Positions 1-42,190 of a stretch of DNA of 64,000 nucleotides are shown here, in pieces. Source of the DNA: Myxococcota bacterium (GTDB lineage Bacteria; Myxococcota_A; UBA9160; PR03); the NCBI GenBank assembly GCA_041611735.1, contig JBFIML010000012.1, positions 1 to 64,000 on the forward strand. Direction: 5' to 3'. Made by a program: the position numbers and the translations under genes. The stretch's first letter is position 1. The number at the start of each line of letters is the position of its first letter. The notes under the pieces are model-generated. The model was not told the DNA's origin. It saw only the letters and a program-made list of their open reading frames with translations, and ran no database searches.

Positions 1-2561
1 TCGCTCAGCGTGAACGTGAACCCGTCCGAGGGGGTCTCGCCGCCATCGTGCGTGTAGGTCAGGAGGCCGCCGTCCACGTCCGCCTGGGTGAAGCTGTCGC
101 TCACGCCGAGGGCCACGGCGTTGCGGTAGAGCGTCCCGTTCGTGGGGACGGCCGTCACCGTGTACGTGAGCTCCGCGGCGGGGTTGTCGACGTCGGTGGT
201 CTCGAGCAGCGCCGTCGTGATCGTCCCCGAGGCGCCCTCGTCGAGCGTGAGCCCGGCGTTCGTGGCCAGCACCGGGGCGTCGTTCACCGGGCTCACGTTC
301 ACGAAGCTCGAGGCCAGGTTGCTGTTGTTCGAGCCGTCGGAGGCGGCGAAGGTGATGACCCGGGTCGTCGGATCCGGATCCTGGGAGCTGTTGTCGTAGG
401 TGATCGTCCTCAGGACCTGCTGGTAGCGGGCGACCGTGTCGGACCCGGTCAGCGACAAGACGCCCGTACCGCTGTCGTAATTGGCGACGATGCTGGTCCC
501 GCTGGTGTTGGCGGCGAGCACCTCGGCGGCGCCGTCGATCCGGTTCGTGATGGTGACGGTGAGCGACTGGAGGTTCGCGCTGTCCGGGTCGGTCAGTGTG
601 GCATCCGCGTCGACGATGACGATCGGGCCGGCCCCCTCCGTGAAGGAGATCTCGAATTCCGCCCCGGTGCGGCCGCTACTGTCGTCCGCGTCCAGATCCA
701 GGACCGGGGCGACCGGGGCGGGCGGCGTGTAGACGATCTCCAGGACCGGCTTGATGGCGCCTTCCCGGCTGTCGTACGTGACGGTCCGGTTGCCTCCCCC
801 ATCCGGGCTGGCCACCATCACGCCGTTGTTCGGCTGGGTCCCCGCCAGCCAGGCCTGGGCGAGGGATGTGACGTCCCAGACGTGCTGCCCCGTCGCGGCG
901 GTCGAGATCGAGTCGAGTGCCGTGGGGTTGAAGACACCGCCCGCCGTGGACCAGTTCGTGCCCGTCGAGCGCTGGTTCCAGGTCGTCGAGCCTTCCGCCC
1001 ACGACTCCAGCACCTGGTGGACGTTGATGTTGAGCAATCCGCCGATCGCGGTGGCCTGGAGCTTCAGGGTCGCACTCTGGATGGTCGAGCCCGCGGGGAT
1101 CGAGCTCAGGTCGAACTGCACCAGGGCCCGCTGGAGATCGGTGGATTCCCGATCGACGACCATCGAGCCCAGGGTCCCCGCGTTCGTGTTCGGATTCTTG
1201 AGCTGCAGGTAGGCGTCCTGGACGGGAGAGAGCGAAGCGGCCTGGGCCGAGTGGGTGTCTGCCTGGATCGAGACGGCCGCCACCGACCACTTCTCGTTGT
1301 TGACCGTCCACGAGGTGGTGACGGAAGCGGCTCCCGCCTCGACCGTGCCACTGCCGTTCGCGTTGTCGACGGCGATGTCCCAGTACTCGGTCTGGCCCGC
1401 CCCCGGCGTGGCGGAGGCTCCCTTGTGAGAGGCCACGACACCGAATACGAGATCGTCCACCGCAGAGCCAAGGTCCGTGGAAGCCGTTGCCGAGGTGTCG
1501 GACGCGCTCGCGAAGGCCAACGTGGGCGTCGACTGGTTCACCCCCGTGAATGTCATCACGCCGACGGCCACGCCCTGGTGGCCGGTCCCGGTCAGGTTCA
1601 CGACCACGCTGTGGGTTCCCGTGGCGGGAGCCACCAGCGCCCAGATCTCCACCCGGGCCTTGCCGGCGGGGTTCTGCTCGAAGCCGACGCGGGTCAGGTT
1701 GGTGCCGTTGTAGGTGACGGAGGTGACGCTCGTTCCCTCGGGCTGCATGGAGACGCCGACGAGCATGAGGCGATTCGTCCCCGAGGTGGTGTGGGACACG
1801 GTGACGCTGGCCTGGTTCGCCGTGGAGCCGCTGGAGCTCGCATCGACGGCGACCGCCAGGACCGAGCGCCAGCTCCCCTGCACCTGCGCGCCGAAGGCCA
1901 GCTCCGATTCGAGGGCACCGGTCGAGTACTCGAGCTCCCAGTCGCCGCCGAGCAGGGTGCTGCCCGTCAGGTCGGTGCTGGCCGCCACGTCCGCGCCCGT
2001 GAGCTTGGCCAGGGACTCGACGAAGGCGGCCCCCTCGGCGCTGCCCGCCAGGTCGCAGCCGTAGAAGAGCAGGTCGGCCTCGGCGGTGAGGGCGTCCCCC
2101 CAGCTGGCCAGGGTGCTGGCGTAGCGGTCCAGCGTCTCGGCCGAGAGCCAGCTGCTCCCGAGGCGGACAGCGCCCTGGGTACCATGGGAGACGACGTGGA
2201 TCGCATCCAGGTTCTCGCGATCGGCGAGGATCTCGGTGATCTGCTGGAGGCCATCGCGCTCCGTGTCGAGCAGCACCACGTCGAGGGTGCGCTCGGCGCT
2301 GGAGCGCAGGTCGGTCACCAGCGCCTGCCAGTCGTCGACGCCGGTGTCCACGAAGACGATCTCGCGGCGCACCACCGCCGCGGCGTCGGTGGCTCGCGCG
2401 GCGGGCTCGACGAGCTGCTCTTGGGCTGCGGGCGTCTGGGACGGGCTGGCCAGGGAGGGGTCGAGCAGCGGCGCCAGGCCGTCTGCGGACAGCAGGAGGC
2501 GCGGCTCCAGCTCTTCGATGAGCGGGCGGTCGACCTCGCTCGCGAGGTGCTTCTTGCCCAT
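1..2561 (-). CDS. Giant secreted adhesin-like protein (partial, runs off left edge): LEPR-XLL motif, DUF4347, DNRLRE/CBM96-like domain, cadherin/CSPG-like repeats
   Basis: Not in the ORF track (no stop in window). Manual translation from ATG 2561 with GGAG upstream: MGKKHLASEVDRPLIEELEPRLLLSADG..., then REIVFVDTGV/IHVVSHG/LLFYGCDLA/DVAASTDLTG/GGDWELEY (DUF4347), QDAYLQ...RALVQFDLSSIP...DSREG..PVLEIVY, then VNDAPVL...TDVDN...LTYTV...FTQADVDGG. Confidence 0.88.
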   Translation of the reverse strand, partial: MGKKHLASEVDRPLIEELEPRLLLSADGLAPLLDPSLASPSQTPAAQEQLVEPAARATDAAAVVRREIVFVDTGVDDWQALVTDLRSSAERTLDVVLLDTERDGLQQITEILADRENLDAIHVVSHGTQGAVRLGSSWLSAETLDRYASTLASWGDALTAEADLLFYGCDLAGSAEGAAFVESLAKLTGADVAASTDLTGSTLLGGDWELEYSTGALESELAFGAQVQGSWRSVLAVAVDASSSGSTANQASVTVSHTTSGTNRLMLVGVSMQPEGTSVTSVTYNGTNLTRVGFEQNPAGKARVEIWALVAPATGTHSVVVNLTGTGHQGVAVGVMTFTGVNQSTPTLAFASASDTSATASTDLGSAVDDLVFGVVASHKGASATPGAGQTEYWDIAVDNANGSGTVEAGAASVTTSWTVNNEKWSVAAVSIQADTHSAQAASLSPVQDAYLQLKNPNTNAGTLGSMVVDRESTDLQRALVQFDLSSIPAGSTIQSATLKLQATAIGGLLNINVHQVLESWAEGSTTWNQRSTGTNWSTAGGVFNPTALDSISTAATGQHVWDVTSLAQAWLAGTQPNNGVMVASPDGGGNRTVTYDSREGAIKPVLEIVYTPPAPVAPVLDLDADDSSGRTGAEFEISFTEGAGPIVIVDADATLTDPDSANLQSLTVTITNRIDGAAEVLAANTSGTSIVANYDSGTGVLSLTGSDTVARYQQVLRTITYDNSSQDPDPTTRVITFAASDGSNNSNLASSFVNVSPVNDAPVLATNAGLTLDEGASGTITTALLETTDVDNPAAELTYTVTAVPTNGTLYRNAVALGVSDSFTQADVDGGLLTYTHDGGETPSDGFTFTLS

Positions 2562-2603
2562 GACTTTGGGGCTCCACCGAGACCGGTGTAATCCAGGAGA
2601 CTG

Positions 2604-2632
2604 GAATCGGACGGACGGCGGCCCGGATGTAG
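2604..2632 (-). promoter_or_regulatory. Putative sigma28-like promoter for the adhesin (TACA-N16-TCCGATTC)
   Basis: Same spacing and CCGAT core as the sites upstream of neighbouring genes; the -35 is weaker. Confidence 0.35.
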
Positions 2633-2640
2633 CGATTTAG

Positions 2641-2970
2641 CTACGCGAAAGCCTTCTCCCCCCGAGGGGGCTTCCCACTAGCCGGGGCCAGCGCCGGGGC
2701 CTTTTCCCCTGGGGAGAGGCCCGAAAGGCCACTAGCCGCCGGGATGGGGCCGAGGCGTGCCTCGTAGCGACTCACCGCGTCCGCCAGCACCTTCAGCATG
2801 GACTTCGCGTGGGCCGGGGTCGTGACCAGGGAGGCCACCAGGTGGGCGCCCCCCACGTCCTCCTGGGTGAGCTGGCCGAAGGTCAGGAAGAACTCGGAGC
2901 GCTGCGGTCCCACACGCAGGAAGTTCACGTAGAGGGCGGGCGGCAGGGTTCCGGGCGTCGGGGCGTCCAT
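2641..2970 (-). CDS. DUF3467-like small protein
   Basis: ATG 2970 with AGGAGGAG RBS; LYVNFLRV...EFFLTFGQ...LVTTPAHAKSMLKVLADAVSRYEARLGPI fits the DUF3467 pattern. Confidence 0.75.
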   Translation of the reverse strand: MDAPTPGTLPPALYVNFLRVGPQRSEFFLTFGQLTQEDVGGAHLVASLVTTPAHAKSMLKVLADAVSRYEARLGPIPAASGLSGLSPGEKAPALAPASGKPPRGEKAFA

Positions 2971-3007
2971 GGGCTCCTCCTGGCGGGCGGCCGGGCCGCC
3001 TGCCGCG

Positions 3008-3035
3008 TCATCGGTGGCGGCGGGTCGGGCCTTGA
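3008..3035 (-). promoter_or_regulatory. Putative sigma28-like promoter (TCAAG-N15-ACCGATGA)
   Basis: Lies 37 nt upstream of the DUF3467 ATG and overlaps the end of the DGC gene. Confidence 0.5.
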
Positions 3036-4555
3036 ACCCGTCCGGGGGCCGGACTCGCGCCCGGCGAGTGGCGTCCCAGCGCATCCCAGCGGGTCACCCG
3101 GTTGCGGCCCGCTTCCTTGGAGGCATACAGGGCTTCGTCCGCCTGGTTGATCAGCTCCAGGGCCTTGCTGGCGCCGAATGACATGGACGAGACTCCGAAG
3201 CTGGCCGTGACCGGGACCCGGGCGAAGCCCGGCGACGCGATCTTGCGGCGTATCCGCTCCGCCACGTTGACTGCCACCTCCACGGTCGCATCCGGAAGCA
3301 CGATGCAGAACTCCTCGCCGCCGTAGCGGCAGACTGCGTCCGTGGAGCGGACCTCCTGCGACAGCGCCTCCGACACGCCGCGGATCACCTCGTCTCCCAT
3401 CAGGTGCCCGTGGTCGTCGTTCACGCGCTTGAAATGGTCGATGTCCACCATCACCGCACACAGACGGCGGCCTTCCTGCTTGGCAGAGGTGAAATAGGTT
3501 TCGAAGCGCTCCAGGAAGGCCCGCCGGTTGGCCACTCCCGTCAGCGGGTCCGAACGGGCCAGGATCGTCAGCTCCTCGTTCTGGAGCCGGATCTCCTCCT
3601 GGGATTTCTCGAGCCGGCCATTCGCCTCTTCGAGTTCGGCGTGCTTGCGCTCGAGCTCGGTCACGTCGTCGAAGGTGGCAATGGCACCCTTGGCGCGCCC
3701 GAACCCGTCCAGGACGGGCGCTCCCTTGATCACGAAGGAGCGCAGCTCGCCGTCCGCGGTGCGCAGGTGCAGGCGACCCGCATGGGTCTGGGACTGGCGG
3801 ATGGCCTCGAGCCATGGGTAGCTGCGGGGCGCTTCGTCGGAGCGCGGCACGCGCCAGTCCAGACTCGAGGCCTTGCGCCCCATCAAGGCGGCCCGGGGCT
3901 GTCCGCTGCGCTCGGCGAAGGTCTCGTTGGCGAGCACCACCCGCCCCCGGTCGTCCAGGAGCAGCACGCCTTCCGCCATCACGTCCAGGGTCGTCTGCAC
4001 GCGGGAGGGGATCACCGAAGACGGGTCCAGATGTCGCAGCGAACGCCGCAAGTAGAGCCCGTACGACAAGAAGCCCGCCGCGGCCATCAACACCAGCAGC
4101 CGCACCATGGGGCGGCTCCACAGCGCCTCGATCAGGCTTCCTGGACCCAGCTGCTGGAAGCGGACCTCGAGCGTCGCCCAGGGTCCCCCGGAGCGGAACA
4201 GCGGAATGCGGGCGTGGGTGGACGTGCTGCCCGTCTCGGTCTCGGACTCCCACAGGGCCGCGTGGTCACCGGCCACCACCAGCAGGCGCCCGTCCGCGGC
4301 GCGCAGGGCAGCGGAAAGCACCTCCTCGTTGCGGCGCACGGCGACCTGGAGCGCCGCCCGCACCGAGGCGAAGTCGCTGCGCTCCGCCGCGATGGCGGCC
4401 TGGGCGGCGAGCTGCTCACAGAGGCGGATACGCGATTCGAGTCGTATGTCCGCGGGAGTGGGCATGAGACCCGCGAGATCCAGGACGATCAGCAGGGAGC
4501 AGGTGAGGATCACCAGGCCCCAGCTGAGGCGGATCACCGGGGAGAGCGTGTTCAC
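3008..4555 (-). CDS. Membrane-bound PAS-GGDEF diguanylate cyclase
   Basis: Two TM segments around a periplasmic domain, PAS, coiled coil, DPLTG..NRR, VMVDIDHFKRVND, RSTD I-site, RYGGEEF. Start set at GTG 4555. Confidence 0.9.
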   Translation of the reverse strand: MNTLSPVIRLSWGLVILTCSLLIVLDLAGLMPTPADIRLESRIRLCEQLAAQAAIAAERSDFASVRAALQVAVRRNEEVLSAALRAADGRLLVVAGDHAALWESETETGSTSTHARIPLFRSGGPWATLEVRFQQLGPGSLIEALWSRPMVRLLVLMAAAGFLSYGLYLRRSLRHLDPSSVIPSRVQTTLDVMAEGVLLLDDRGRVVLANETFAERSGQPRAALMGRKASSLDWRVPRSDEAPRSYPWLEAIRQSQTHAGRLHLRTADGELRSFVIKGAPVLDGFGRAKGAIATFDDVTELERKHAELEEANGRLEKSQEEIRLQNEELTILARSDPLTGVANRRAFLERFETYFTSAKQEGRRLCAVMVDIDHFKRVNDDHGHLMGDEVIRGVSEALSQEVRSTDAVCRYGGEEFCIVLPDATVEVAVNVAERIRRKIASPGFARVPVTASFGVSSMSFGASKALELINQADEALYASKEAGRNRVTRWDALGRHSPGASPAPGRVQGPTRRHR

Positions 4556-4565
4556 GGCCGCAGGG

Positions 4566-5579
4566 TCACTCTTCGAGGAAGCGAACCTGGCAGTGCAGGC
4601 CGCTTGGAATCGCGTGGTCCGGGTTGGGCAAGAGGAGCCGGACGCCAAAGGTTCCGCTGGCGGCGTCCACGACCCGATCCACGATGGCCACCTGGGCCAC
4701 GTGGACGCGGTCGCCGGGCTGCTCGGGGACCACCGCCGCCCGCATGCCCGTCCGGACCGAGCCGAAGCGGGCCGAGGGGAGGATCACCTCCACCCGCAGC
4801 GGATCGATCTCGGCCACGGTGAGGATGGTGTCCTGATCCACCATTTCGCCGACGGAGCGCCGGCGCTCCACGACCACCCCCGAGATGGGGCTGTGGATCC
4901 GGCGGCGCTCGAGGGTGGCGATGGCCCGCTCCAGCTCCAACTGCGCCAGGCGCTGCTTCTCGTGAGCCTGACGCAGCTCCAGGGCAGCCAACGCCGACTC
5001 GGTCTCGATCTCGTCACGGAGGTCGAGCGAGAGCGCCTCCCGCTCGAAGAGCAGCTCGGCACGTGCCTGCTTGCGCTCGCCCAGGGCGAGCCGCGCCTGC
5101 CGCGAGCGCACCTCCCCCTCCATCTTCGCCGCGGCGCGCGCCAGCTCCACCTGGGCCCGCTCCACGGCGGATTCGAGCTCCGCCACCGGCTGGCCGGCAT
5201 CGACCAGGTCGCCGCGCTCCACGTGGACCTGTTCGAGGACACCACGGACCGGGCTTCCGATCTCGACCAGCTCGTGGGGCTCGATCACGCAGTCCAGACT
5301 CTCGGAGCCGCTCTCCTGTGCCGCAGCGAGGTCGGGACCCTCCCCAGGCAGCGCATGCGCACGGGAGAGAGCCTGGGTCGCGGGGCGGGACGGTCCCGGA
5401 AGCGTCTCGGAGCGAGCAGGCACGGCGCCGCGGCCGCTCCCCTCCCCCTCTCGCACCGCCGTACAGCGCGGGCTCACGAGCAGGACGAGGGTGGCCACCA
5501 CGCCGGCGGCAGGCACGAGCCAGCGGCGCGCTCCACCCAGGCGCCCTCGGACCGACACGTTCCGGCTCCCACCTCCCAC
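4566..5579 (-). CDS. Efflux/T1SS-type periplasmic adaptor (membrane fusion protein)
   Basis: N-terminal TM; lipoyl halves IGSPVRGVLEQVHVERGDLV and IHSPISGVV; alpha hairpin; VDRVVDAASGTFGVRL. Start uncertain. Confidence 0.88.
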   Translation of the reverse strand: MGGGSRNVSVRGRLGGARRWLVPAAGVVATLVLLVSPRCTAVREGEGSGRGAVPARSETLPGPSRPATQALSRAHALPGEGPDLAAAQESGSESLDCVIEPHELVEIGSPVRGVLEQVHVERGDLVDAGQPVAELESAVERAQVELARAAAKMEGEVRSRQARLALGERKQARAELLFEREALSLDLRDEIETESALAALELRQAHEKQRLAQLELERAIATLERRRIHSPISGVVVERRRSVGEMVDQDTILTVAEIDPLRVEVILPSARFGSVRTGMRAAVVPEQPGDRVHVAQVAIVDRVVDAASGTFGVRLLLPNPDHAIPSGLHCQVRFLEE

Positions 5580-5589
5580 CGGCTCGTCC

Positions 5590-7539
5590 CTATTCTCCCG
5601 GGCCGGCGAAGGCGAGGACATCGCTCATGTATTCCTCGAGCTCCATGAGCGCACGGCGCATCCGCGAGTGTCGTTTCTCTTCGGCCCGTTGGGGCAGGAA
5701 CGTAAGGGCTCCGCCAAGGCCAGGACCCAGGGGATGGCCGAGCCGAGCCAGGAGGGGCCGCGCCCACGCGGCGTAGAACGCCTCCATCGGCTGGTCCTCC
5801 AGGGAAAAGATGGACTCGTAGCTCCCAGGATCCCCCTGGCGCCCGCAGCGTCCGAAGAGCTGCCGGTCGATGCGACGGGCCTCGCTGCGCTGGGTGGCAA
5901 TCACGTGCAAGCCCCCGCACGCGGCCACGCCCGCGGCCAGGCGGATGTCGGTGCCGCGCCCCGCCATGTGGGTGGCGACCGTGATGCGGCCTGGCTCGCC
6001 CGCTTCCGCCACGATGCGCGCCTCCTCCGCGTCCTGGCGCGCGTTCAGCACCTGGTGTGGAAGCCGCCGCTCGCTGAGTCGGCGGCTCAGCTGCTCGGAG
6101 GCCGCCACCGAGGCGGTGCCCACCAGCACCGGACGCGCGGCGCGATGGAGCTGGCCCACGCGCGCCACCACCGCTTCCCACTTTGCGGATTCCGTCGCGA
6201 AGACGCGCAGGCCGAGGTTGCGGCGCCGCAGCGGGAGCCGGGTCGGGATGCGGCGGGTGTTCAGGCGGTAGACGGACCAGAGCTCCCGGGCCACCTCCCG
6301 GGCGGTCCCCGTCATCCCCGCGAGGCGCAGGTAGCGCCGGAAGAGCTGCTGGTAGCTGATGCGCGCAATCGTCTCGCGCTGAGGGGTGGGCTCGCAGCCC
6401 TCCTTCACCTCGATGAGCTGGTGCAGGCCGCCCTCCCAGGCCCGGTCCGGGGCGAGCCGTCCCGTGGGTTGGTCGATGATCTGGACCTTGCCGTCGCGCA
6501 CCAGATAGTGCCGATCGCGCTGGAAGAGATGCAGGGCGGAGAGGGCCTGACGCGCCCACTCCTCGCGCCGGCGCGGGCCCGTCCAGGTCCCACCCAGGGG
6601 CTCCGCCAGCTCTGCGAGACGCTCCCGCCCGCGGGTCGTGAGCGCGGCGCCAGCCTCGTGGGGGTCGAGGCGGAAGTCGGCCCCCTCCTCCAGGGAGCGC
6701 GCCAGTCGCAACGCCTGCCGGTAGGTGCGGCGCTGCTCGGGGGAGCCGCCTGCCGCCGCCAGGATCAGGGGCGTGCGGGCTTCGTCGATCAGGACGCTGT
6801 CCGCCTCGTCCACGATGGCGAAGCACAGGCCGCGCAGGAGGAGGGGCTCGTCCCGAGTTTGGCCTCCCCCACGCCGCCCCCGGGCCAGACCGTCGCGCAG
6901 GTAGTCGAAGCCGAGCTGCTTGGCGGTCACGTAGGTGACGTCGCATGCGTAGGCGGCCCGGCGGGCGCCGGCGTCCCGCTGCCCCTCGGTCGCAGCCCCC
7001 ACCGAGAGGCCGAGCGCCGTGTAGAGCGGCCCCATGGCTTCCGCGTCCCGTTGCACCAGATAGTCGTTCACCGAGATGACGTGGACGGGAATTCCCGCCA
7101 GGGCGGCCGTGGCCGCCGGAAGCGTGGCCGTCAGCGTCTTTCCCTCGCCGGTCTCCATCTCGGCGAGCATCCCCCGGGCCAGGACCCAGCCGCCCATGAG
7201 CTGCACGTCGTAATGACCCATGCCGAGGGTTCGCTGGGCAATCTCCCGGATCAGGGCAAAGGCGCGAGCCAGCAGCGGCTCCTCGAGTCCCTGGAGCACG
7301 AGGTGGCGCTGGAGCCCGCGCACCTGACGTTCGAGACCCGCATCGGACTCCAGCCGGAGCGCGCCGGTCTGGGCGCGGACTGCGCGCACGAAGGCTTCGA
7401 GCCGCGCCGCTTCCGATCGTGCGCGCAGGAACGGCCCGCGCAGGGCGTGCACGGCGCGCTCGCCCCACTTCTCCCGGGCCGGGTCGCGCTCCGGGTAGGC
7501 GCCGCGCGCCACCCCCGGCCGCAGCGCCGCGCTAGACAC
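5590..7539 (-). CDS. Accessory, C-terminally truncated SecA-like ATPase (SecA_DEAD + PPXD + NBD2)
   Basis: [72 protein letters not shown]. 649 aa, no wing/two-helix-finger/SEC-C region. Confidence 0.93.
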   Translation of the reverse strand: MSSAALRPGVARGAYPERDPAREKWGERAVHALRGPFLRARSEAARLEAFVRAVRAQTGALRLESDAGLERQVRGLQRHLVLQGLEEPLLARAFALIREIAQRTLGMGHYDVQLMGGWVLARGMLAEMETGEGKTLTATLPAATAALAGIPVHVISVNDYLVQRDAEAMGPLYTALGLSVGAATEGQRDAGARRAAYACDVTYVTAKQLGFDYLRDGLARGRRGGGQTRDEPLLLRGLCFAIVDEADSVLIDEARTPLILAAAGGSPEQRRTYRQALRLARSLEEGADFRLDPHEAGAALTTRGRERLAELAEPLGGTWTGPRRREEWARQALSALHLFQRDRHYLVRDGKVQIIDQPTGRLAPDRAWEGGLHQLIEVKEGCEPTPQRETIARISYQQLFRRYLRLAGMTGTAREVARELWSVYRLNTRRIPTRLPLRRRNLGLRVFATESAKWEAVVARVGQLHRAARPVLVGTASVAASEQLSRRLSERRLPHQVLNARQDAEEARIVAEAGEPGRITVATHMAGRGTDIRLAAGVAACGGLHVIATQRSEARRIDRQLFGRCGRQGDPGSYESIFSLEDQPMEAFYAAWARPLLARLGHPLGPGLGGALTFLPQRAEEKRHSRMRRALMELEEYMSDVLAFAGPGE

Positions 7540-9679
7540 CGATCCGCCTCAGGAAGAGGCGTCGCACGCCGCGGGCCAGGCGATACGCCACCGGTTCCGC
7601 GCCGTGGTCGAAGCGGACGTGGGCCCGGGCGCCGATGCCGTGCGCGCCGGCCCCGGCCGCAAGCTCCACCTCCAGCTGGAAGACGGGCTCGAGCGTCCGG
7701 AGTCCGTCCGGGTCTTCCGGATCGACCGCGAAGGGTCCACCCCCGGCGTGACCGAGGGCGCGGCTCGGAAGCGCGTCGGTCGCGGCCGGCACCTGGCGGC
7801 CCAGCGCGGCCGGCAGCACCTGCTCGGGGCGCCTCGCCAGCCGGACCTCGACCCCCCGCACCCGATCCCGCACCACGGCCACATCCGCCTGGGACACGAC
7901 GACCCGCACGGTCGGAATCGGTTGGCCCACGACCCAGCCGATCCGCTCCCCCTGGCGCACGAAGCGGCCGGCCAGGTCCGCCGCGTCGGGCACCACGAAG
8001 ACACCGTCGGCGGGGCTTCGCACCACCCCCTCTCCCATCCTCTCGCGGCCCCGGGCGAGCTCCGCCTCCTTGGTGACGAGCTCCTCCAGCGTGATCTGGG
8101 CCTTCACCAGCTCCGTGTGCCGTTCCGCGTGATGGCGCGCGCGGAGCTCCCGCACCTCCGCGTCCAGGACCGCCACCTCCGCCTTCAGCGAGGGGGCCTC
8201 GGTCAGGACGAGGGCATCGCCCACCTGGACCGTGGAGCCGGGAGGAGCCAGGGTGCGCGCGACGAAGCCCTCGGCGCCGGCCCGCACCTCGCTGCCCGGG
8301 GACGGCCACACGACCCCCTGCGCCCGGGTGGAGAACGGCAGCGGAAGCCCGAACCCCAGACCCAGGACGCCCAGCACCGCGCCCATCGAGAGCGCCACAG
8401 CCCTCGAACGCTGGCTGCCGAGGCGCGGGCTCGTGAGCACGAACAAGGCGTGCCGGACCGCGGGGACACCCACCTGGGTGACCAGGGCGGCCACGGCCAC
8501 CAGGAGACCCAGGCCGAGGAAGCGCCCTGCCAGGAAGAAGGCGATCGCCAGCAGGATGGCGGTCCGGTACACGAAGGAGGCGGGTCCGTAGCCAAGGAAC
8601 CAGCGCTCCTCGCCGGCCGCCGCTACCGGATAGCGCACCTGCGAGAGCCCGAAGCCATGTCGCAGCACGAGCCAGCCCCAGTACTGGTTGGAGCGCGCCG
8701 CCAGGTTCGGGATCTCGATCCAGTCGGAGAGCACGTAGTAGCCGTCGTAGCGGAGCAAGGGGTTGCCGTTGAAGAGCAGCGAGGAGGCGGCGCCGATCCA
8801 CACCACGTCGTACGCCAGGACCCGCAGCGCCCCGGGCTCGACCATCAACCACACCAACAGGGCAAGCGCCGCGAGGAAGAGCTCCACCAGCACGCCCGCC
8901 GCCCCGACCAGGGCGCGCTGGCCCTTGTCCGGAAGGACCGACGCCGCCGAGGCGTCCACGTAGGGGACCGGCATCAGGACCAGGAGCAGGATCCCCATCT
9001 CGTGGACCTCGCCGCCGTGCACCTTCACGGCGAAGGCGTGGCCCAGCTCGTGGAGCCCCTTGAGGACCGGATAGGCCAGCCAGAGCAGCAGCAGGTTGCG
9101 CGGCTCGAGGAGCGCGTCGCGCGCGCCGTGCGTGAGATCGCCCCAGTGCACGACGGCCAGCACCGCCGCCATGGCCACGAAGGCGCCCCAGACCAGCGCG
9201 CCGGCGCGGGAGAAGAGCGGGCGGACCCAGGGCAGGGCCCGTTCCAGGAAGGCATCCGGATCGACCAGGGGGATGCGTACCGCCAGGGGATTCGCGAAAC
9301 GACGCCACCATTCCTGCTGCTCGCGGCGCTGGCAGCGGCGCAGCAGCTCCTCCGTATCCGGCGAGACGTCGCACTGGAGCACGTCCGCGGCGTGCAGCAG
9401 ACCGAGCAGGCGGATGGCCTCGTCCTGGCTCGGCCCCTCGTCCCCCAGCACCGCCTGGGCGGCCTCCCAGATTTCCTGGGTGGTGCGCTGACCGTCCATG
9501 AGCGCCACCACCTGATACGCGGCGGGAGCGAGGCGGTGGCAGCGGCCGGAGGCACGATCCTCCAGCACGTACCAGACCTCGCCCCGGTAGAGATGCCGGT
9601 GGAAGCGGGCGTGGGGTCGCAGCTGGGGCCGCAGCCGGGCCACCCGATACCAGGATGCGCTGAAGAGCTTGCCGGACAC
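7532..9679 (-). CDS. M50 site-2 intramembrane metalloprotease with N-terminal PqqD/RRE-like domain and C-terminal HlyD-like adaptor domain
   Basis: HELGH and NPLLRYDG motifs, several TM helices; C-terminal RAGAEGFV...VRSPADGVF lipoyl/hairpin. Confidence 0.88.
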   Translation of the reverse strand: MSGKLFSASWYRVARLRPQLRPHARFHRHLYRGEVWYVLEDRASGRCHRLAPAAYQVVALMDGQRTTQEIWEAAQAVLGDEGPSQDEAIRLLGLLHAADVLQCDVSPDTEELLRRCQRREQQEWWRRFANPLAVRIPLVDPDAFLERALPWVRPLFSRAGALVWGAFVAMAAVLAVVHWGDLTHGARDALLEPRNLLLLWLAYPVLKGLHELGHAFAVKVHGGEVHEMGILLLVLMPVPYVDASAASVLPDKGQRALVGAAGVLVELFLAALALLVWLMVEPGALRVLAYDVVWIGAASSLLFNGNPLLRYDGYYVLSDWIEIPNLAARSNQYWGWLVLRHGFGLSQVRYPVAAAGEERWFLGYGPASFVYRTAILLAIAFFLAGRFLGLGLLVAVAALVTQVGVPAVRHALFVLTSPRLGSQRSRAVALSMGAVLGVLGLGFGLPLPFSTRAQGVVWPSPGSEVRAGAEGFVARTLAPPGSTVQVGDALVLTEAPSLKAEVAVLDAEVRELRARHHAERHTELVKAQITLEELVTKEAELARGRERMGEGVVRSPADGVFVVPDAADLAGRFVRQGERIGWVVGQPIPTVRVVVSQADVAVVRDRVRGVEVRLARRPEQVLPAALGRQVPAATDALPSRALGHAGGGPFAVDPEDPDGLRTLEPVFQLEVELAAGAGAHGIGARAHVRFDHGAEPVAYRLARGVRRLFLRRIGV

Positions 9680-9691
9680 GCTGGCGCCGCC

Positions 9692-11146
9692 TCAGGGCAG
9701 CCAGGACCACGCCGCCAGGCGCAGCGCGTCCACCAGCCGGTGGCTTGCGATCCAGAGCAGCGAGCGCCGCCCCACCTCGATCTTCGCCATCCCCTCCATG
9801 CCCGGCCGCAGGGACTGGGAGGGCTCCTCCTCGAGGTGGGCCTCGACGCGAAAGGTGTTGCGGCCGTCCTCGGCCGTGGCGACCGGTGTGATCTGCTCGA
9901 CGGCCAGACCGAGGGATCTGCCGGGCAGCGCCGCGAGGGCCAGCCGACCGCGGGCCCCCTCTACCAGCTCGGCCATGTCCTGGTCGTCGACCTTGAGGAT
10001 GATCCGGTAGCCATCGAGGGGAGCGACCTCGAAGAGGACGGCGCCCTTGTCCACCGGAGCGCCCAGGGACTGACTCAGGTCCCCCCGCACCACCACGCCG
10101 TCGAAGGGCGCCACCAGCTGGGTCCGCACCAGGTTCTCCTCGAGCAGCTCGAGCTGGGCCTCCGCCTGGGCGATCTTCGCGCCGAGGATCGCCACCTCGG
10201 CGCGATCGTGACCGGCCAGGGCTTCGCGATGCTCCTTGCGGAGCTGCTCGCGACGGCCCAGCGTCTTGCGGCGCTCGAGGCGAAGGTCCCGCTCGTCGAG
10301 CCGCGCCAGCACCTGCCCTTCCTGGACGACGTCGCCAGCACGCGCGTGAGCCTCCGCCACGTAGCCATCCAGGCCGGCCACGATGGCCCGCTGCACGCGT
10401 CCTTCGAGGGTGGCCTCGGCGATGATGCGGTGGCGGACGGGGACCCACGCGAGCAGGGCGACGACCAGGACGACGAGGCCGGCGCTCGCCTTGGTCTGCG
10501 GATGCCCCGGCTCTCTCAGGCGCACGAACAGACCGCGCAGGGCCTCCCGCCCGCGCTCCAGGAGACGTGTCTCGGCGGCCTGCGCCAGCACCAGGACGGG
10601 CGCCAGCAGCTCGGCCGCTCCGGTGCAGAACGACAGCGCCTCTGCATCGAAGGCGGGCCCTCGCGACCGCTCCAGCGTGAGCGCTCCGATCACCGCCCCC
10701 CGGTGCGCCAGGGGCACTGTGCAGGCGGCCGTCCCGCCGTGACGGGTGGCGAGCTCCTCGTGTGCTCGAGTGATCCGCAGCGCCGCTCCGGGAACCACGG
10801 GATGCGTGAGCACCGCGTCCTGATCGGCCGCCTCCTCCATGGCTGCGGTCAGGTCCCGCGCCAGATTCGCCCGGGGGTCGAAGCGCGCGCTGTGCGAGAG
10901 CGCGACCACGCGCATCTGGCCGCGGCGCACGAGCCCCAGGCTCACGCGCTCGGCGCGCAGCCGGGTCGCGAGCTCGGTGGCGACGGCGGTGGCCGTGGCC
11001 CGCAGACCGCGCTGGGCCAGGGCCACGCTCAGCAGCTCGAGGCACGCCCCGGCGCGATCGGCAACGGCCCCCTGGCCTTGTGAGCGGGCTACGGATTGCA
11101 GGGCGACGAGCTCCCGGTGGAGGAAGTGCTCGGCGGACGGGCCCAA
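9692..11146 (-). CDS. GAF domain + HlyD-family membrane fusion protein
   Basis: GAF (ERVSLG...[18 protein letters not shown]), [10 protein letters not shown]...[19 protein letters not shown]. Start uncertain (TTG 11146, or CTG 11101 after GGGAG). Confidence 0.85.
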
Positions 11147-11341: not shown

Positions 11342-14213
<2,872 letters not shown>

Positions 14214-14221
<8 letters not shown>

Positions 14222-16364
14222 AGGCCCGCTTCGCCGCAACGCGCCCCGCGCCCTGGTAGTGGACGACGACCCGGTGATCCGACTCCTGGCGGCCCAGGCC
14301 CTGGCCACGCTGGGCTTCCAGGTGGAGGAGGCGGAGGACGGAGAGAGTGCCCTCGCCGCAGTGGATCGCGCCGCGCCGGACCTGGTGATGCTCGACGTGG
14401 AGATGCCGGGACTGGACGGCTTCGAGACCTGCGCCGCCCTTCGCCAGCGCCCGCACGGCCGGGAGATCCCCGTGCTGGTCGCTACGGGCCACACGGATGT
14501 CGAGACCATCGACGAGGCCTTCCGGGTCGGCGCCACGGACTTCATCAAGAAGCCCCTCGACTGGCAGATCCTCCAGCACCGGGTGCGCTTCGTGATGCGC
14601 GCGAGCCACGCCTTCTCGGAGCTGCGCAGCACGCTCTCCGACCTGCGGCAGAGCCAGGAGCGGCTCGCCAACGCGCAGCGCATCGCCCGGATCGGAAACT
14701 GGGAGTGGACCCCTGGCGAAACGGAGATGCTCTGGTCCGAGGAGCTCCACCGGATCTTCGGCGTGGAGCCCGGCCCGGGGGCCTCCAGCTACGCCGCCTT
14801 CCTGGCCGTGGTGCACCCGGACGATCGCGAACGCCTCGAGAAGGCCATGCAGGCCGCCCTGTGCGAGAGCAAGGCCTGGAGCCTGGAACATCGCATCGTC
14901 TCCTTCTCCTCCCAGCATCGACGCGTGGTGCAACACCAGGCGGAGGTGGCGCGAGGCCCGGACGGCACGCCGGAGCGCCTCTACGGCATCGTGCAGGATG
15001 TCACCGAGAGCCGCCAGGCCGCGGAGCGAATCCGACACCTGTCCTACTACGACAGCGTCACGGCCCTGCCCAACCGTCGCATGCTGAGCGACTATCTGAA
15101 GGGCCTGCTCGAACAGGCGGCCCGACAGCAGGAGCCCCTCGCCTTGCTGCACCTGAGCCTCGATCGGTTCAAGCGCATCAACGAGACACTGGGCCCCACC
15201 CTGGCCGATCGCCTGCTGCGCGCGGTGGCCACCCGCCTCAGCGGCCGCGTCCGCACCACCGACTCCGTCGGCCGGCTGCAGGACATGGAGCCCGCCAAGG
15301 TGTCGCGCCTCGGTGGTGACGAGTTCGCCATCGTGCTCCACGTCATCCGCTCCGCGAACGACGCGGCCCACGTGGCGGGGCGCGTGCTCGAGTCGCTGCG
15401 CGAACCCTTCCGCATCGAGGGGCACGATCTGGTGCTCACCGCGAGCCTGGGCATCGCGGTGTATCCGGGAGACGGCACGACTCCCGAGACCCTCATGCGC
15501 AGCGCCAATGCGGCCATGCACCACGCCAAGAGCGTTCGGAACGCCTACCGCTTCTTCAGTGAGGCCATGAATGAGAGTGCTTTGCGCAATCTCCGCCTCG
15601 AGAATGCGCTGCGGGGCGCCGCCATTCGGGGCGAGCTCCTGCTCCTCTACCAGCCCCAGCTCGAAACCCGCACGGATCGCCTGATCAGCGCCGAAGCGCT
15701 GGTCCGCTGGCGCTCGCCCGAGTTCGGCCTGGTCAGCCCGGGCGAGTTCATCCCGTTGGCGGAGCAGACGGGTCTCATCGAGCCGATCGGCGAGTGGGTG
15801 CTCGAGGCCGCCTGCGCCCAGCTGCGCGCCTGGCGCGCCGCGGGCCTCGCGCCGCTCCGGGTGGCCGCCAACGTCTCGAGTCATCAGGTGCGCAGGCCGC
15901 AGCTCGTGGACACGGTGGCACGGCTGCTGCAGCAGTACGCGGTGGATCCGAGCTGCCTCGAGCTCGAGATCACGGAAAGCGCCCTGCTCGCCGACGAGCC
16001 GGTGGTGATAAAGACGCTCCAGGGCCTCAAGGCGTTGGGCGTACGCCTCGCCCTGGACGACTTCGGCACCGGCTTCTCCTCGCTGAGCCACCTGGTGCGC
16101 TTCCCGATCGACGCGGTCAAGATCGACCGCTTGTTCGTGAGCGACATCGACTCGGGCGGCCAGGGGGTCGGCATCGTGGCCGCGGTCCTGGCCATGGCCC
16201 GGAGGCTCGAGCTCACGGTCACGGCGGAAGGGGTCGAGACCGCAGAGCAGGCCGCGTACCTGCGCCGCGAGGGCTGCGACTTCCTGCAGGGCTACCTGCT
16301 GGGCCGGCCCGAGGAGCCCGCCGCCCTGGCGGAGCGGCTGCGGAAGACGTCGTCCGGGACCTGA
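14214..16364 (+). CDS. REC-PAS-GGDEF-EAL c-di-GMP enzyme (likely phosphodiesterase)
   Basis: ATG overlaps the kinase stop; [51 protein letters not shown]. Confidence 0.93.

Positions 16365-39388: not shown

Positions 39389-42190
<2,802 letters not shown>

Follow-up and report, generated by a model that had tools for sequence, protein, structure and literature searches.

A short SecA, a protease-adaptor fusion and a giant LEPR-XLL protein encoded together: a candidate export module in a Myxococcota bacterium

An operon on the minus strand of a Myxococcota contig, running from position 11146 to 3 of the window (the whole 64-kb stretch of DNA that was analyzed), encodes in this order a GAF-adaptor protein (G1), an M50-protease-adaptor fusion (G2), a short SecA (G3), a third adaptor (G4), a PAS-GGDEF cyclase (G5), a DUF3467 protein (G6), and a giant LEPR-XLL/DUF4347 protein (G7). 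We propose, giving the idea an even chance of being right, that this is a module of the "secondary SecA_DEAD plus type-I-like" kind, a dedicated envelope-spanning machine for export and processing of the adjacent giant.

Results

Organization of the operon

The features are listed in Table 1. Domains were assigned by Pfam and NCBIfam profile searches, and for every gene third-position GC pointed to a single minus-strand frame as coding. Both confirmed the composition given by an earlier, sequence-only reading of this DNA (adaptors, short SecA, diguanylate cyclase, DUF3467, and giant). Gaps between neighbouring genes measure 12 to 79 nt; other genes overlap, as the start of G3 does with the end of G2 (8 nt). 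The same reading had seen no ABC exporter, RND pump, or SecY in the operon, and the Pfam/NCBIfam scan found none of the three there. The single RND gene of the window lies at 55639-58803, about 44 kb from the operon, and no TolC gene was found in the 64 kb. Because the gene order is kept in 80 loci of other genomes (cited below by L numbers), the operon is more than a chance arrangement.

Table 1. Features of the operon and its divergent neighbours
Feature	Position	Strand	Basis and remarks
G1: GAF (cytoplasmic), one membrane helix, periplasmic MFP/HlyD-type adaptor	9692..11146	-	484 aa; Pfam, NCBIfam, hydropathy
G2: PqqD/RRE-like N-terminal domain, M50-type intramembrane metalloprotease, periplasmic adaptor	7532..9679	-	715 aa
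G2 residues 20-100: RRE-like, predicted leader-binding domain, three strands then three helices	9380..9622	-	AF2 model, PqqD matches of homologues, predicted contacts
G2 HELGH zinc-binding motif (H210, E211, H214)	9038..9052	-	Invariant in 20/20 aligned homologues; translation checked
G2 NPLLRYDG, second site-2-protease motif (N306, P307, D312, G313)	8741..8764	-	Alignment; translation checked
G2 residues 446-715: adaptor part, alpha-hairpin helices 496-519 and 524-549	7535..8344	-	AF2 model, Foldseek
G3: second, short SecA (NBD1, preprotein-binding domain, NBD2, start of scaffold helix)	5590..7539	-	649 aa; Pfam, alignment
G3 Walker A GEGKT (K134)	7135..7149	-	Translation
G4: membrane-anchored MFP adaptor with long coiled-coil region	4566..5621	-	351 aa, start uncertain; Pfam, NCBIfam, hydropathy
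G5: membrane-bound PAS-GGDEF diguanylate cyclase	3008..4648	-	Start uncertain; TTG ORF overlaps G4 by 83 nt
G6: DUF3467 protein	2641..2970	-	109 aa from likely start ATG at 2970; ORF open back to 3084; Pfam 41.6 bits
G7: first 853 codons of giant (LEPR-XLL leader, DUF4347, DNRLRE, cadherin-like repeats)	3..2561	-	Open at window edge; Pfam/NCBIfam
G7 residues 1-31: basic N-terminus and LEPRLLLSAD (2481-2510), proposed export/cleavage leader	2469..2561	-	LEPR-8K match, alignment, predicted interface
Hybrid sensor kinase (HAMP-HisKA-HATPase-receiver-Hpt), divergent from operon	11342..14221	+	Pfam
Receiver-PAS-GGDEF-EAL protein, after kinase	14112..16364	+	Pfam

Conservation of the cassette across genomes

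When 8000 candidates were scored for membership of the G2 family, 4772 hits reached E ≤ 1e-10, and at least 587 of the 600 pattern matches listed, on contigs from one genome per species, were confirmed. The order G1-G2-G3-G4 was conserved. A G1 orthologue preceded G2 in 71 of the 71 loci with enough upstream sequence, a short SecA was found in 62 of 68 loci, with a divergent copy in one more, and G4 in 51 of 60. The cross-genome co-occurrence that the sequence-only reading had looked for was thus found for the short SecA and the M50-adaptor fusion, together with the other two adaptors in fixed order, across phyla. Five of the 68 loci (L016, L020, L060, L068, and L079) had no recognisable SecA gene in the cassette; one of them, L079, has a LEPR-type ORF downstream all the same. 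Two cassettes, those of L016 and L072, have radical SAM genes nearby.

OEP/TolC-like genes were embedded in or adjoined 7 of the 80 cassettes, in line with the proposed bridge to a TolC; in L024, L028, and L031 they lie between the G4-like adaptor and G1. An ABC exporter beside the adhesin had been named as evidence against a SecA-driven system. Among the 100 nearest neighbour proteins scanned, none was an exporter of the T1SS type, and one had an ABC_tran domain only.

The giant cargo and its N-terminal motif

The part of G7 within the window matched LEPR-8K (21.1 bits; NCBIfam cut-off 17), DUF4347 (199), DNRLRE (107), and Cadherin_3 (79.1). When the N-termini of 19 cargos were aligned, E19 and R21 proved invariant, and S25 and A26 nearly so. 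The giant had been described as lacking a Sec signal peptide, and this was upheld: the first ~80 residues have no hydrophobic stretch, with a maximum Kyte-Doolittle 19-residue mean of 0.92.

In 22 of the 80 loci, besides the window, the cassette has next to it an ORF whose N-terminus is basic and whose first 90 residues contain a LEPR-type motif; these counts come from crude ORF calls, and many loci had short flanks. In total, 25 motif ORFs (two of them stray) were observed against 1.04 ± 0.98 expected, with a maximum of 4 in 100 shuffles, so that LEPR giants accompany the cassette far above chance. Another 20 loci had a same-strand giant just upstream whose N-terminus lay beyond the flank. 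Homologues of this upstream-giant family carried the motif in their first 100 residues in 41 of 120 cases, and six of them are named LEPR-XLL at NCBI.

RTX repeats occurred in the last 900 residues of 15 of the 20 upstream giants, near the C-terminus in four, and a serralysin-like domain in five of the 20. The repeats give these giants the look of canonical T1SS substrates, and they could be exported C-terminus first by an ordinary ABC T1SS encoded elsewhere. The cassette would then hold, process, or release the N-terminus under c-di-GMP control, as LapD and LapG do for LapA-type adhesins. The serralysin-like domain, the c-di-GMP genes in and around the operon, and the predicted aim of the G2 protease at the N-terminus fit this account, which we nevertheless judge distinctly unlikely. 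Two complete LEPR/DUF4347 cargos scanned with Pfam (L010, 1935 aa; L050, 2654 aa) had no RTX repeat, and no ABC exporter stood next to any cargo in the flanks scanned. Three adaptors and an ATPase far exceed the needs of a release switch, and TolC is embedded in seven cassettes. No LapG/LapD-type protein was found among these genes; G5 matches LapD through its GGDEF domain only (48.8 bits against a cut-off of 1020).

The protease-adaptor fusion G2

The M50 part of the fusion was assigned by its invariant HExxH and NPxxxxDG motifs and by its homologues, not by its own score: Peptidase_M50 gave 19.6 bits, under the Pfam cut-off of 27.2, and neither Pfam PqqD nor Pfam M50 was above threshold in G2 itself. 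Among 20 homologues, PqqD matched 10, Peptidase_M50 19, and HlyD_3 19. The M50-MFP fusion of the sequence-only reading therefore stands by motifs and homologues, although the score of the window protein is sub-threshold. Residues N306, P307, and D312 were invariant in the homologue alignment and G313 nearly so, and the catalytic motifs of G2 are intact. Residues 18-403 matched the NCBIfam model daptide_HExxH (NF041824) with 148 bits, under its cut-off of 300, over 362 of 379 model positions.

In the AF2 model (pLDDT 82.8), the N-terminal domain has strands at residues 24-31, 34-41, and 46-50 and helices at 52-59, 67-81, and 85-97. The C-terminal part, a weak adaptor match in the profile search, resembles MexA, MacA, and AcrA by fold (Foldseek, best E 7.6e-11).

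A complex prediction of G2(1-450) with G7(1-45) supports binding of the cargo leader to G2. It scored 0.68, a value that is the model's own confidence, and the best of three controls 0.00. Of 157 solved complexes, 116 came up to the score mark, as did 2 of 215 mismatched pairs; the counts apply roughly here, because our own alignments were used. The runs agreed in at least 76% of contacts, and the partner had a pLDDT of at least 51. Cargo residues 11-31 were placed on the RRE-like domain and in the HExxH site, the interface on G2 including residues 46-51, H210, E211, H214, and D312, with residues 46-51 in predicted contact with cargo residues 15-18. At least 90% conservation was seen in 32 of 55 interface residues against 150 of 450 overall (hypergeometric p ~5e-5), but this enrichment is not independent evidence, because strand pairing between RRE and leader is common among solved structures and conserved residues cluster at any active site. 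The role of leader peptidase, also proposed by the sequence-only reading, gains support from the RRE-like domain, the homology to RiPP leader peptidases, and the controlled complex prediction; cleavage itself is what G2 would probably perform.

The likeness of G2 to RiPP leader peptidases, RRE-like domain included, would also suit a cassette that matures or exports a small RiPP-like peptide, with the giants as bystanders, and the radical SAM genes near two cassettes could be read in the same way. We find this very improbable, since the giants are adjacent far above chance and carry the LEPR motif, which is predicted to dock into G2. Moreover, no conserved small precursor gene was found beside the cassettes apart from DUF3467, which looks folded and has short, variable tails.

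The short SecA

G3 had been described as a truncated second SecA, and it does stop after NBD2. It aligned with 40% identity to residues 61-666 of the full-length housekeeping SecA of the same window (39389-42190, 933 aa) and ended there. Pfam gave SecA_DEAD 330.9, SecA_PP_bind 81.1, and P-loop_SecA 181.6 bits and found neither SecA_SW nor SEC-C, so wing or scaffold domain and zinc finger are missing. The GEGKT motif and the DEAD-type motif (DEAD at residue 244) are both intact. All four SecA2 cut-offs of NCBIfam lie far above the scores of G3.

Accessory SecA2 proteins of Gram-positive bacteria are cargo-dedicated motors that work through SecYEG. By this parallel, export could take two steps: the short SecA would feed the giant through the general SecYEG, G2 would trim the leader, and the adaptors with TolC would carry the protein from the periplasm to the outside. 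In favour of this, G3 is a genuine paralogue of SecA and includes a preprotein clamp, no channel is encoded in the cassette itself, and a full housekeeping Sec motor is encoded in the same window. We still consider this route unlikely. In SecA, the two-helix finger that inserts into SecY belongs to the scaffold domain, and G3, which ends where residue 666 of the 933 would lie, lacks most of that domain. In addition, the cargo N-terminus has no hydrophobic core, and no SecY2 or Asp-type gene was found among the conserved neighbours.

Adaptors, cyclase, and regulatory neighbours

G1 matched GAF (31.9 bits), HlyD_3 (65.6), and HlyD_D23 (53.1) in Pfam and RND_mfp in NCBIfam (100 bits; cut-off 94.9); hydropathy places its membrane helix at about residues 219-237. 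The GAF-adaptor fusion of the sequence-only reading was found, with one correction: G1 of the window has a single GAF, and of two orthologues checked, both with a longer N-terminus, one has two GAF matches. G4 scored 71.3 bits with HlyD_D23 and 116.3 with RND_mfp (cut-off 94.9), and its membrane helix spans about residues 31-56 by hydropathy.

G5 (GGDEF 147.8 bits, PAS_4 42.1 bits) has two hydrophobic helices by hydropathy. Strong matches to it (304-746 bits) lie inside the operons of L002, L006, L010, and L015, and a GGDEF-containing neighbour family was present in 10 loci. DUF3467-like genes adjoin the cassette in 19 of the 80 loci. The conserved part of DUF3467 looks like a folded domain; modelling of G6 gave a poor model, and no structural relative was found. 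We propose that G6 is a cargo chaperone or adaptor. The three closest cassettes (L002, L003, and L015) are likewise flanked by orthologues of the kinase (818-1014 bits) and of the GGDEF-EAL protein (650-843 bits). Both are candidate clade-specific regulators, the latter of c-di-GMP.

Site-2 proteases classically act in signalling. With a GAF domain and c-di-GMP genes at hand, the cassette could be a signalling device, in which intramembrane proteolysis by G2 frees a cytoplasmic fragment while SecA and the adaptors sense the state of the envelope. This seems to us scarcely probable: no anti-sigma or transcription-factor substrate was conserved in the loci, and the adaptor hairpins and embedded TolC genes indicate a conduit.

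Discussion

Proposed mechanism

In the export model that we favour, the cargo would be synthesised in the cytoplasm; it begins with a short basic stretch, the LEPR-XLL motif comes next, and a hydrophobic Sec-type signal is absent. The cytoplasmic RRE-like domain of G2 would take up the LEPR motif as an added beta-strand and present the residues after it to the M50 active site, so that G2 would be both receptor and leader peptidase. G3, with both NBDs and the preprotein clamp but no scaffold, wing, or zinc finger, would push the unfolded chain at the expense of ATP. G1, G2, and G4, all inner-membrane-anchored, would contribute one adaptor domain each to a periplasmic tunnel that docks onto a TolC-type outer-membrane channel encoded elsewhere, and the cargo would probably cross both membranes in one step. 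The M50 domain may be the inner-membrane gate; we know of no M50 protease that acts as a protein-conducting channel, and the cassette has no channel known to us. Export may be tied to c-di-GMP or a related signal, a putative ligand of the G1 GAF, through that domain, the G5 cyclase, and the kinase/GGDEF-EAL pair, with DUF3467 as a possible small cytoplasmic helper of the cargo. If true, this would be an uncharacterised route for the export of very large surface proteins in Gram-negative bacteria.

Comparison with known systems

Like canonical T1SS (HlyB-HlyD-TolC, or LapEBC for giant RTX adhesins), the cassette has inner-membrane adaptors with alpha-hairpins and a proposed TolC-type partner, and its cargos are very large and rich in repeats, often bind Ca, and have no Sec signal. 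It differs in having no ABC transporter, three different adaptors instead of one, and a SecA fragment as the putative ATPase. T1SS signals are C-terminal and uncleaved, whereas that of the cassette cargo is N-terminal and predicted to be cleaved.

PCAT-type bacteriocin exporters recognise an N-terminal leader and cut it with their own protease domain, a cysteine peptidase of the C39 type attached to an ABC transporter; their cargos are small peptides. The cassette would share this logic of leader recognition and cleavage, but in it an M50 metalloprotease is joined to an adaptor, and its cargos reach thousands of residues. RiPP leader peptidases of the HExxH type (NF041824, daptide; NF058609, YydH/LiaK) resemble G2 in this motif and in a PqqD-like recognition domain. 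G2 remains under the equivalog cut-off (148 vs. 300), has an added periplasmic adaptor domain, and is accompanied by SecA and MFPs, not by RiPP-modifying enzymes. Accessory Sec systems (SecA2/SecY2 for serine-rich adhesins; mycobacterial SecA2) likewise use a second SecA for a special, often giant, surface protein; here there is no SecY2/Asp gene, and the scaffold, wing, and C-terminal domains, all retained in SecA2 proteins, are missing from G3.

The four-gene core and the idea of SecA in place of an ABC transporter are not original to this work. The sections on the conserved "secondary SecA_DEAD / type-I-like" locus in Kamneva, Poudel, and Ward (PLoS One 2015; PMC4452313), an in silico study, describe GAF-HlyD, Peptidase_M50-HlyD, SecA_DEAD without C-terminal domains, and HlyD/biotin-lipoyl, with an occasional OEP. 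They suggest that SecA_DEAD takes the place of the ABC transporter as ATPase and that the M50 protein may form a membrane pore. The only expression data cited there, in section 17, are for M. extorquens, where all the genes except the one for the GAF protein were silent or very low in exponential growth (PMC4452313). The window has the same core and falls under the same hypothesis, and adds the cyclase, DUF3467, and the LEPR-XLL giant, all within one operon, to the locus described there. By a term search, the main text of that paper names no cargo, adhesin, RTX, DUF3467, or PqqD, and Myxococcota are absent from the phyla listed in its title and abstract (PMC4452313). Our literature search found no experimental follow-up of the cassette, and we found neither the LEPR-type cargo tag, nor DUF3467 beside the cassette, nor PqqD/RRE-like tag recognition by G2 in print.

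A SecA motor without wing and scaffold is also linked to giant proteins in Omnitrophota, where, in the passages concerned of West-Roberts et al. (bioRxiv 2023), SecA_DEAD lies inside the giants and is proposed to serve their own export. Theirs is part of the giant and has type II secretion neighbours, whereas G3 is a separate protein of 649 aa within an adaptor cassette.

Gene content of the operon

The operon consists of seven genes on the minus strand, running from position 11146 down to 3, with spacings of 12 to 79 nt or overlaps between them (see table). The G+C content of the window is about 72%, so that its six-frame ORF lists are crowded with shadows, and the real frame of each gene was picked by its third-position G+C. 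Shadow ORFs with high third-position G+C lay antisense to real genes, at 733-1212 (+), 7604-11083 (+) and elsewhere; these long antisense ORFs, typical of high-G+C DNA, were rejected as genes.

The sequence-only reading had described three adaptor-domain genes, a short SecA, a cyclase, a DUF3467-like protein and a giant protein that carries no Sec signal, and the Pfam and NCBIfam domains bore this description out in every item. The membrane fusion proteins (MFPs) of type I secretion are represented by three adaptors (G1, G2 and G4), with G1 and G4 exceeding the cut-off of TIGR01730. No ABC transporter (transmembrane part plus ATPase) was found in the operon or among the 38 other window ORFs scanned. 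A full-length SecA and the site-2 protease RseP are encoded in the same window, and thus the SecA and M50 genes of the operon are true second copies.

Genes of the operon (G1 to G7) and other genes of the window
Gene	Position	Strand	Product and domains
G1	9692-11146	-	484 aa; GAF, one hydrophobic helix, adaptor (MFP) domain
G2	7532-9679	-	715 aa; weak Peptidase_M50 match, C-terminal adaptor part
G3	5590-7539	-	649 aa; SecA_DEAD, preprotein cross-linking domain, second P-loop domain
G4	4566-5621	-	third adaptor
G5	3008-4648	-	membrane-bound PAS-GGDEF cyclase
G6	most likely start ATG at 2970	-	109 aa; DUF3467 protein
G7	2561 to window edge	-	853 codons visible; LEPR-XLL motif, then DUF4347, DNRLRE domain, cadherin-like repeats
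Housekeeping SecA	39389-42190		933 aa; with wing/scaffold and SEC-C
RseP	31125-32795		housekeeping site-2 protease; M50 with PDZ domains
AcrB	55639-58803		unrelated gene

Relation to a module described in silico

A secondary SecA_DEAD locus with type I-like genes was described by Kamneva, Poudel, and Ward (PLoS One, 2015; PMC4452313). Both of its marks were found in the window: GAF-HlyD, Peptidase_M50-HlyD and HlyD/biotin-lipoyl proteins are co-encoded, and an extra SecA_DEAD protein without the C-terminal domains is present beside the housekeeping SecA. It is nearly certain that the window locus belongs to this module, and by its closest relatives it is a further, Myxococcota-like member of a module already described in silico.

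In its main text, the 2015 paper proposes SecA_DEAD as the ATPase replacing the missing ABC transporter and the M50 protein as a possible pore, and calls the biological role of the module completely unknown. The replacement of the ABC ATPase by SecA, as put forward in the sequence-only reading, is the same hypothesis and hence not original. The only expression data cited in that text show the module genes mostly silent in M. extorquens (the paper names META1p2399-2402 of Methylorubrum extorquens AM1), and a term search of it gave zero occurrences of adhesin, RTX, cargo, DUF3467 and PqqD. Our literature search, with subscription journals largely outside it, returned this paper as the sole prior description and no experimental follow-up, though the protease-adaptor gene has at least 587 confirmed matches counting one genome per species.

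Conservation of the cassette

The G2 family comprised 4772 proteins at E ≤ 1e-10 among 8000 candidates scored, and its length is strikingly constant (711-736 aa in all of the best 120). Twenty of these 120 homologues, picked to cover 53-100% identity, were aligned (A1). The scan of one-genome-per-species contigs with A1 gave 600 listed pattern matches, of which at least 587 were confirmed as G2, and the best 80 of the confirmed matches are the loci studied here (L numbers). They belong to Myxococcota, Alpha-, Beta- and Gammaproteobacteria, Desulfobacterota, Nitrospira, a Flavobacteriales bin, and a Spirochaetaceae bin, and several are from cultured strains. Cultured carriers among the G2 matches listed include Methylobacterium, Bradyrhizobium, Mesorhizobium, Marinobacterium, and roseobacter-group strains; Marinobacterium mangrovicola DSM 27697 and Methylobacterium thuringiense DSM 23674 are two such carriers.

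When the ORFs of the 80 loci were searched with the window proteins, the order G1-G2-G3-G4 was nearly universal. Where the flank upstream of G2 measured 1.9 kb or more, G1 was always found (71 of 71 loci); G3 was found in 62 of the 68 loci with 2.1 kb or more downstream, and G4 in 51 of the 60 with 3.3 kb or more downstream. One locus counted without G3 (L046) encodes a divergent SecA_DEAD protein. No recognisable SecA gene was found in the cassettes of L016, L020, L060, L068, and L079 (5 of 68 loci), which keep G1 and G2 and usually G4; the SecA slot of L068 holds a 601-aa ORF without a Pfam match, and L079 nevertheless has a LEPR-type ORF downstream. In these cassettes, SecA may be encoded elsewhere or may be dispensable. 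Greedy longest-ORF gene calling in the loci was set aside: it gave antisense shadow families (families 5 and 6). Homology searches, together with the ORFs lying off the core span, were used instead.

The G1 proteins of the window (484 aa) and of its closest relative, L015 (467 aa), are about 100-140 N-terminal residues shorter than the two orthologues checked. The extra N-terminus has a second GAF match in L002 (8242-9993) and no Pfam match in L063 (8119-9981); the window G1 has one GAF match.

Candidate clients and their N-terminal motif

The window and 22 of the 80 loci have, adjoining the cassette, an ORF with a K/R-rich start followed by the pattern [LMVI]-E-x-R-x-[LMIV]-[LMIVFY]-[SDNTA]-[AG]. 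These ORFs lie either downstream on the same strand or upstream and divergent. Of the 6252 ORFs searched in total, 25 had the pattern within their first 90 residues, namely those of the 22 loci and of the window plus two strays, against a shuffled expectation of 1.04 ± 0.98 with a maximum of 4 (100 shuffles). A strict LEPRxLL pattern, present only in 11 loci and the window, had been replaced by this looser, shuffle-checked one. The alignment of 19 cargo N-termini (A3), from which L013, L021, L030, and L080 were excluded for uncertain starts, has two positions that never vary (E19 and R21) and two that hardly vary (S25 and A26). On G7, the LEPR-XLL model (NCBIfam NF012209), which describes an N-terminal motif of about 24 residues, matched residues 14-35 with 21.1 bits, above its cut-off of 17, and no hydrophobic segment was found in the first ~80 residues; the C-terminus of G7 lies outside the window. 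DUF4347 follows the motif in many of the motif ORFs.

In twenty further loci, the cassette is immediately preceded by a same-strand giant ORF that starts beyond the 10-kb flank. The last 900 residues of these giants contained RTX repeats in 15 cases and a serralysin-like domain in five, and five had no RTX match. The matrixin/serralysin-like zinc protease domain is located near the C-terminus, after the RTX repeats, in the giants of L019, L039, L043, L053, and L054. This architecture matches that reported in a Vibrio genome paper for a giant protein of some 8000 aa.

Longer proteins were searched with 1200 residues of the L063 giant, and the best 120 homologues (2101-5000 aa) were taken. The motif was present in the first 100 residues of at least 41 of these 120, a lower bound because many of the homologues are fragments, and six of the 120 are named 'LEPR-XLL domain-containing protein' by NCBI.

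The signal of type I secretion cargo is C-terminal and uncleaved, usually placed after RTX repeats. Two cargos that end inside their locus (L010, 1935 aa; L050, 2654 aa) have DUF4347 and adhesin-type domains and no RTX repeat; that of L006 (877 aa) has cadherin-like matches only. Since the complete cargos of L010 and L050 lack RTX repeats, it is the N-terminal motif, and not a C-terminal RTX signal, that is common to the cassette neighbors. Two papers, one of them on Azospirillum biofilms, treat LEPR-type giants as adhesin or toxin candidates and leave the cassette unmentioned in their available parts. We consider that the neighboring LEPR-type giant is probably a client of the cassette.

The protease-adaptor and predicted leader recognition

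G2 matched Pfam Peptidase_M50 weakly (19.6 bits, under the cut-off of 27.2), and its residues 18-403 matched the NCBIfam daptide leader peptidase with 148 bits, under the equivalog cut-off of 300. Among the 20 aligned homologues, HlyD_3 was found in 19, Peptidase_M50 in 19 (E ≤ 0.01), and PqqD, the fold of RiPP recognition elements (RREs), in 10; on the window's own G2, PqqD was under the reporting threshold. Site-2 proteases of the Peptidase M50 family carry two motifs in membrane helices (HExxH, NxxPxxxxDG). G2 has both, as HELGH (210-214) and NPLLRYDG (306-313), and the 20 homologues show little or no variation in them.

The AF2 model of G2 (pLDDT 82.8, pTM 0.57) begins with strands 24-31, 34-41, and 46-50 and helices 52-59, 67-81, and 85-97, followed by the membrane domain and then the adaptor. 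A PqqD-like RRE is a winged helix of three strands and three helices that takes up a leader peptide as an additional strand. Helices 496-519 and 524-549 form an alpha-hairpin, and a fold comparison of the C-terminal part gave 68 matches at E ≤ 0.001, with MexA, MacA, and AcrA among them (best E 7.6e-11). No relative of residues 1-140 was found among PDB sequences. Two rival explanations of the cassette bear on this protein. In the first the cassette would be a peptide exporter, as the daptide peptidase match could suggest. To our knowledge, all RRE domains described so far belong to pathways of peptide natural products; the motif-bearing neighbors are proteins of up to thousands of residues. 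In the second, G2 would be a signaling protease, to which its site-2 protease motifs and the GAF domain of G1 could belong; the adaptor hairpin and the OEP genes embedded in some cassettes point to a conduit.

The complex of G2 residues 1-450 (input A1) with G7 residues 1-45 (input A3) was predicted with a score of 0.68 in three runs, the best of 3 controls reaching 0.00. Among solved complexes, 116 of 157 attain the same mark, and among mismatched pairs, 2 of 215 do; these counts are only roughly valid here because our own alignments served as input. The runs share at least 76% of contacts, with a partner pLDDT of at least 51. The contacts with least error join cargo residues 15-18 (I-E-E-L) to G2 strand 46-51, and cargo residues 18-21 (L-E-P-R) to G2 residues 243-247, 315, and 324-328. 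The predicted interface includes H210, E211, H214, and D312. In A1, 32 of its 55 residues are at least 90% conserved, compared with 150 of 450 overall (p ~5e-5). Since any active site collects conserved residues, the enrichment does not count as independent support. Solved structures also offer many examples of strands added to an RRE, a motif that the predictor may simply repeat. With these cautions, the complex prediction supports binding of the leader and fits a role of G2 as receptor and leader peptidase, and we lean slightly toward the view that G2 binds and cuts the leader.

The short SecA

G3 aligned with the housekeeping SecA of the window over residues 61 to 666 of 933, with 40% identity, and then ends. 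The wing/scaffold domain is absent, Pfam gave no match to SecA_SW or the SEC-C zinc finger in G3, and both the Walker A sequence (GEGKT) and the DEAD motif are preserved. With the SecA2 equivalog models, whose cut-offs are 725-1100 bits, G3 scored 382-509 bits.

Among the 120 hits listed for SecA-like proteins of greater length were two, P0241 (1373 aa) and P0242 (1506 aa), that looked like Rosetta-stone fusions of G2-G3 and G2-G3-G4. Each is one sequence from one contig, and we dropped both as evidence. They are probably read-through or frameshift artefacts, because G2, G3, and G4 overlap or abut in the operon, and a fusion that joins a periplasmic C-terminus to a cytoplasmic ATPase makes no topological sense.

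A third rival is a two-step route in which the cargo would use SecYEG. In its favor, no known channel was found among the cassette proteins. Against it can be set the lack of a hydrophobic segment at the start of G7; moreover, no SecY-like gene was found in the operon, and no such family among the conserved neighbors of the related cassettes. That G3 is instead a SecYEG-independent motor, acting via a conduit built by the cassette itself, is a possibility that we hold a little less probable than its opposite. In Omnitrophota, giants with an internal SecA_DEAD without wing/scaffold were proposed in a preprint to serve their own export (bioRxiv 10.1101/2023.11.21.568195).

Outer-membrane partners and neighboring genes

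The neighbor scan started from 270 candidates, which gave 227 family representatives, and the 100 nearest were scanned with Pfam. Three OEP/TolC proteins were among these 100, along with one protein that has an ABC_tran ATPase domain only (L071). Searches with three OEP queries located OEP genes in or beside 7 of the 80 cassettes (L014, L021, L024, L028, L031, L038, and L042); in L024, L028, and L031, the gene sits between the G4-like adaptor and G1. No OEP gene was found within the 64-kb window. Together, the OEP genes in cassettes, the hairpin of G2, and its adaptor fold make an adaptor-to-TolC tunnel well supported.

In the Nitrospira variant (L038:8096-11077 and L042:6117-7945), SecA is followed by two adaptor genes and then directly by OEP/TolC. 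A SapC-family gene occurs in 12 loci, including L019 (Pfam SapC, 214 bits), L038, L039, L052, L056, L069, and L073. It lies between G2 and G3 in four alphaproteobacterial loci (L053:12218-13072, L054:12340-13188, L059:12294-13154, and L066:12229-13107). In Chlorochromatium, sapC and tolC flank giant genes, as stated in a preprint (bioRxiv 10.64898/2026.03.19.712371).

The last rival holds that the cassette is a Lap-like accessory to an ordinary type I secretion system (T1SS). RTX repeats are a hallmark of ordinary T1SS substrates, and their presence on many clients counts against the exporter reading. T1SS-exporter architecture was absent among the 100 nearest neighbors scanned. The sole LapD match came from the GGDEF domain of G5, at 48.8 bits where the cut-off is 1020, and no LapG-like family was found in the operon, the other window ORFs scanned, or the scanned neighbors.

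DUF3467 and c-di-GMP companions

The window and 19 of the 80 loci have a DUF3467-like gene (~100-125 aa) adjoining the cassette, in most cases immediately upstream of G1. The idea that DUF3467 is a SecB-like chaperone was dropped for want of fold support. An AF2 model built on 17 sequences was of low quality (pLDDT 60.6) and Foldseek gave no structural match at E ≤ 0.001; the profile matched nothing among PDB sequences better than E 0.53, and the protein atlas returned only other DUF3467 clusters.

In L016 (4030-5280), DUF3467 is fused to a C-terminal domain of ~300 aa, which recurs alone (L052:2265-3083) or fused to other partners (L057:3254-5626, L041:852-2471, and L072:2933-4471). From reading their sequences, these partners look like flavoenzymes of the tryptophan-halogenase type. 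Radical SAM genes are located near the L016 and L072 cassettes.

Strong matches to the G5 cyclase (304-746 bits) were found inside the operons of L002, L006, L010, and L015, and a GGDEF-containing neighbor family in 10 loci. Next to the three closest cassettes (L002, L003, and L015) lie orthologues of two window proteins, the divergently encoded hybrid kinase and the receiver-PAS-GGDEF-EAL protein.

A proposed export route

We propose that the cassette would work as a dedicated, ABC-less, tripartite exporter. On the cytoplasmic side, the RRE-like domain of G2 would capture the cargo leader and the M50 site would cut it, while the short SecA would push the unfolded chain. The adaptors G1, G2, and G4 would form a tunnel to a TolC encoded elsewhere, GAF and c-di-GMP would gate export, and DUF3467 may aid the cargo. 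Counting against this reading, besides the RTX repeats, are the missing known channel, the five loci without a recognisable SecA gene, and the mostly silent module genes of M. extorquens in the data cited by PMC4452313. Taken whole, we give it an even chance.

A broader reading makes the module a distinct and widespread protein secretion system of diderm bacteria. Giant adhesins and enzymes would carry a cleavable N-terminal LEPR-XLL leader read by the RRE domain; an intramembrane M50 protease, itself a piece of the periplasmic tunnel, would cut it. A SecA motor would drive the chain out without SecYEG and without an ABC transporter, DUF3467 would be a chaperone, and c-di-GMP would be the gate signal via the GAF domain. 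All parts jointly, this is tentative, and we think it rather improbable that every one of them holds.

If true, it would add a further secretion route for the largest bacterial surface proteins, with SecA at work away from SecYEG. RRE-type leader recognition would no longer be confined to small peptides but would cover proteins thousands of residues long, DUF3467 and DUF4347 would acquire a function, and the NCBI label 'LEPR-XLL domain-containing protein' a meaning. The new elements appear to be the following: the client with its N-terminal tag, a cargo link that we did not find in print; the RRE-like reader domain with its predicted docking in the protease site; and DUF3467 as a frequent companion, together with the counts across 80 genomes. 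The 2015 description is now extended by candidates for the cargo and for its signal (residues 1-31 of the giant), by a putative receptor site, and by putative catalytic residues.

Comparison with known secretion systems

The cassette resembles canonical type I secretion in its membrane fusion proteins and differs from it in having no ABC transporter in the operon. Accessory Sec systems pair SecA2 with SecY2/Asp partners, whereas G3 falls under the SecA2 cut-offs and is accompanied by no SecY-like gene in the operon. Lap-type retention places the c-di-GMP receptor LapD and the periplasmic cysteine protease LapG beside the adhesin; neither was found in the operon, the other window ORFs scanned, or the scanned neighbors. 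The system is far from every experimentally characterised secretion system.
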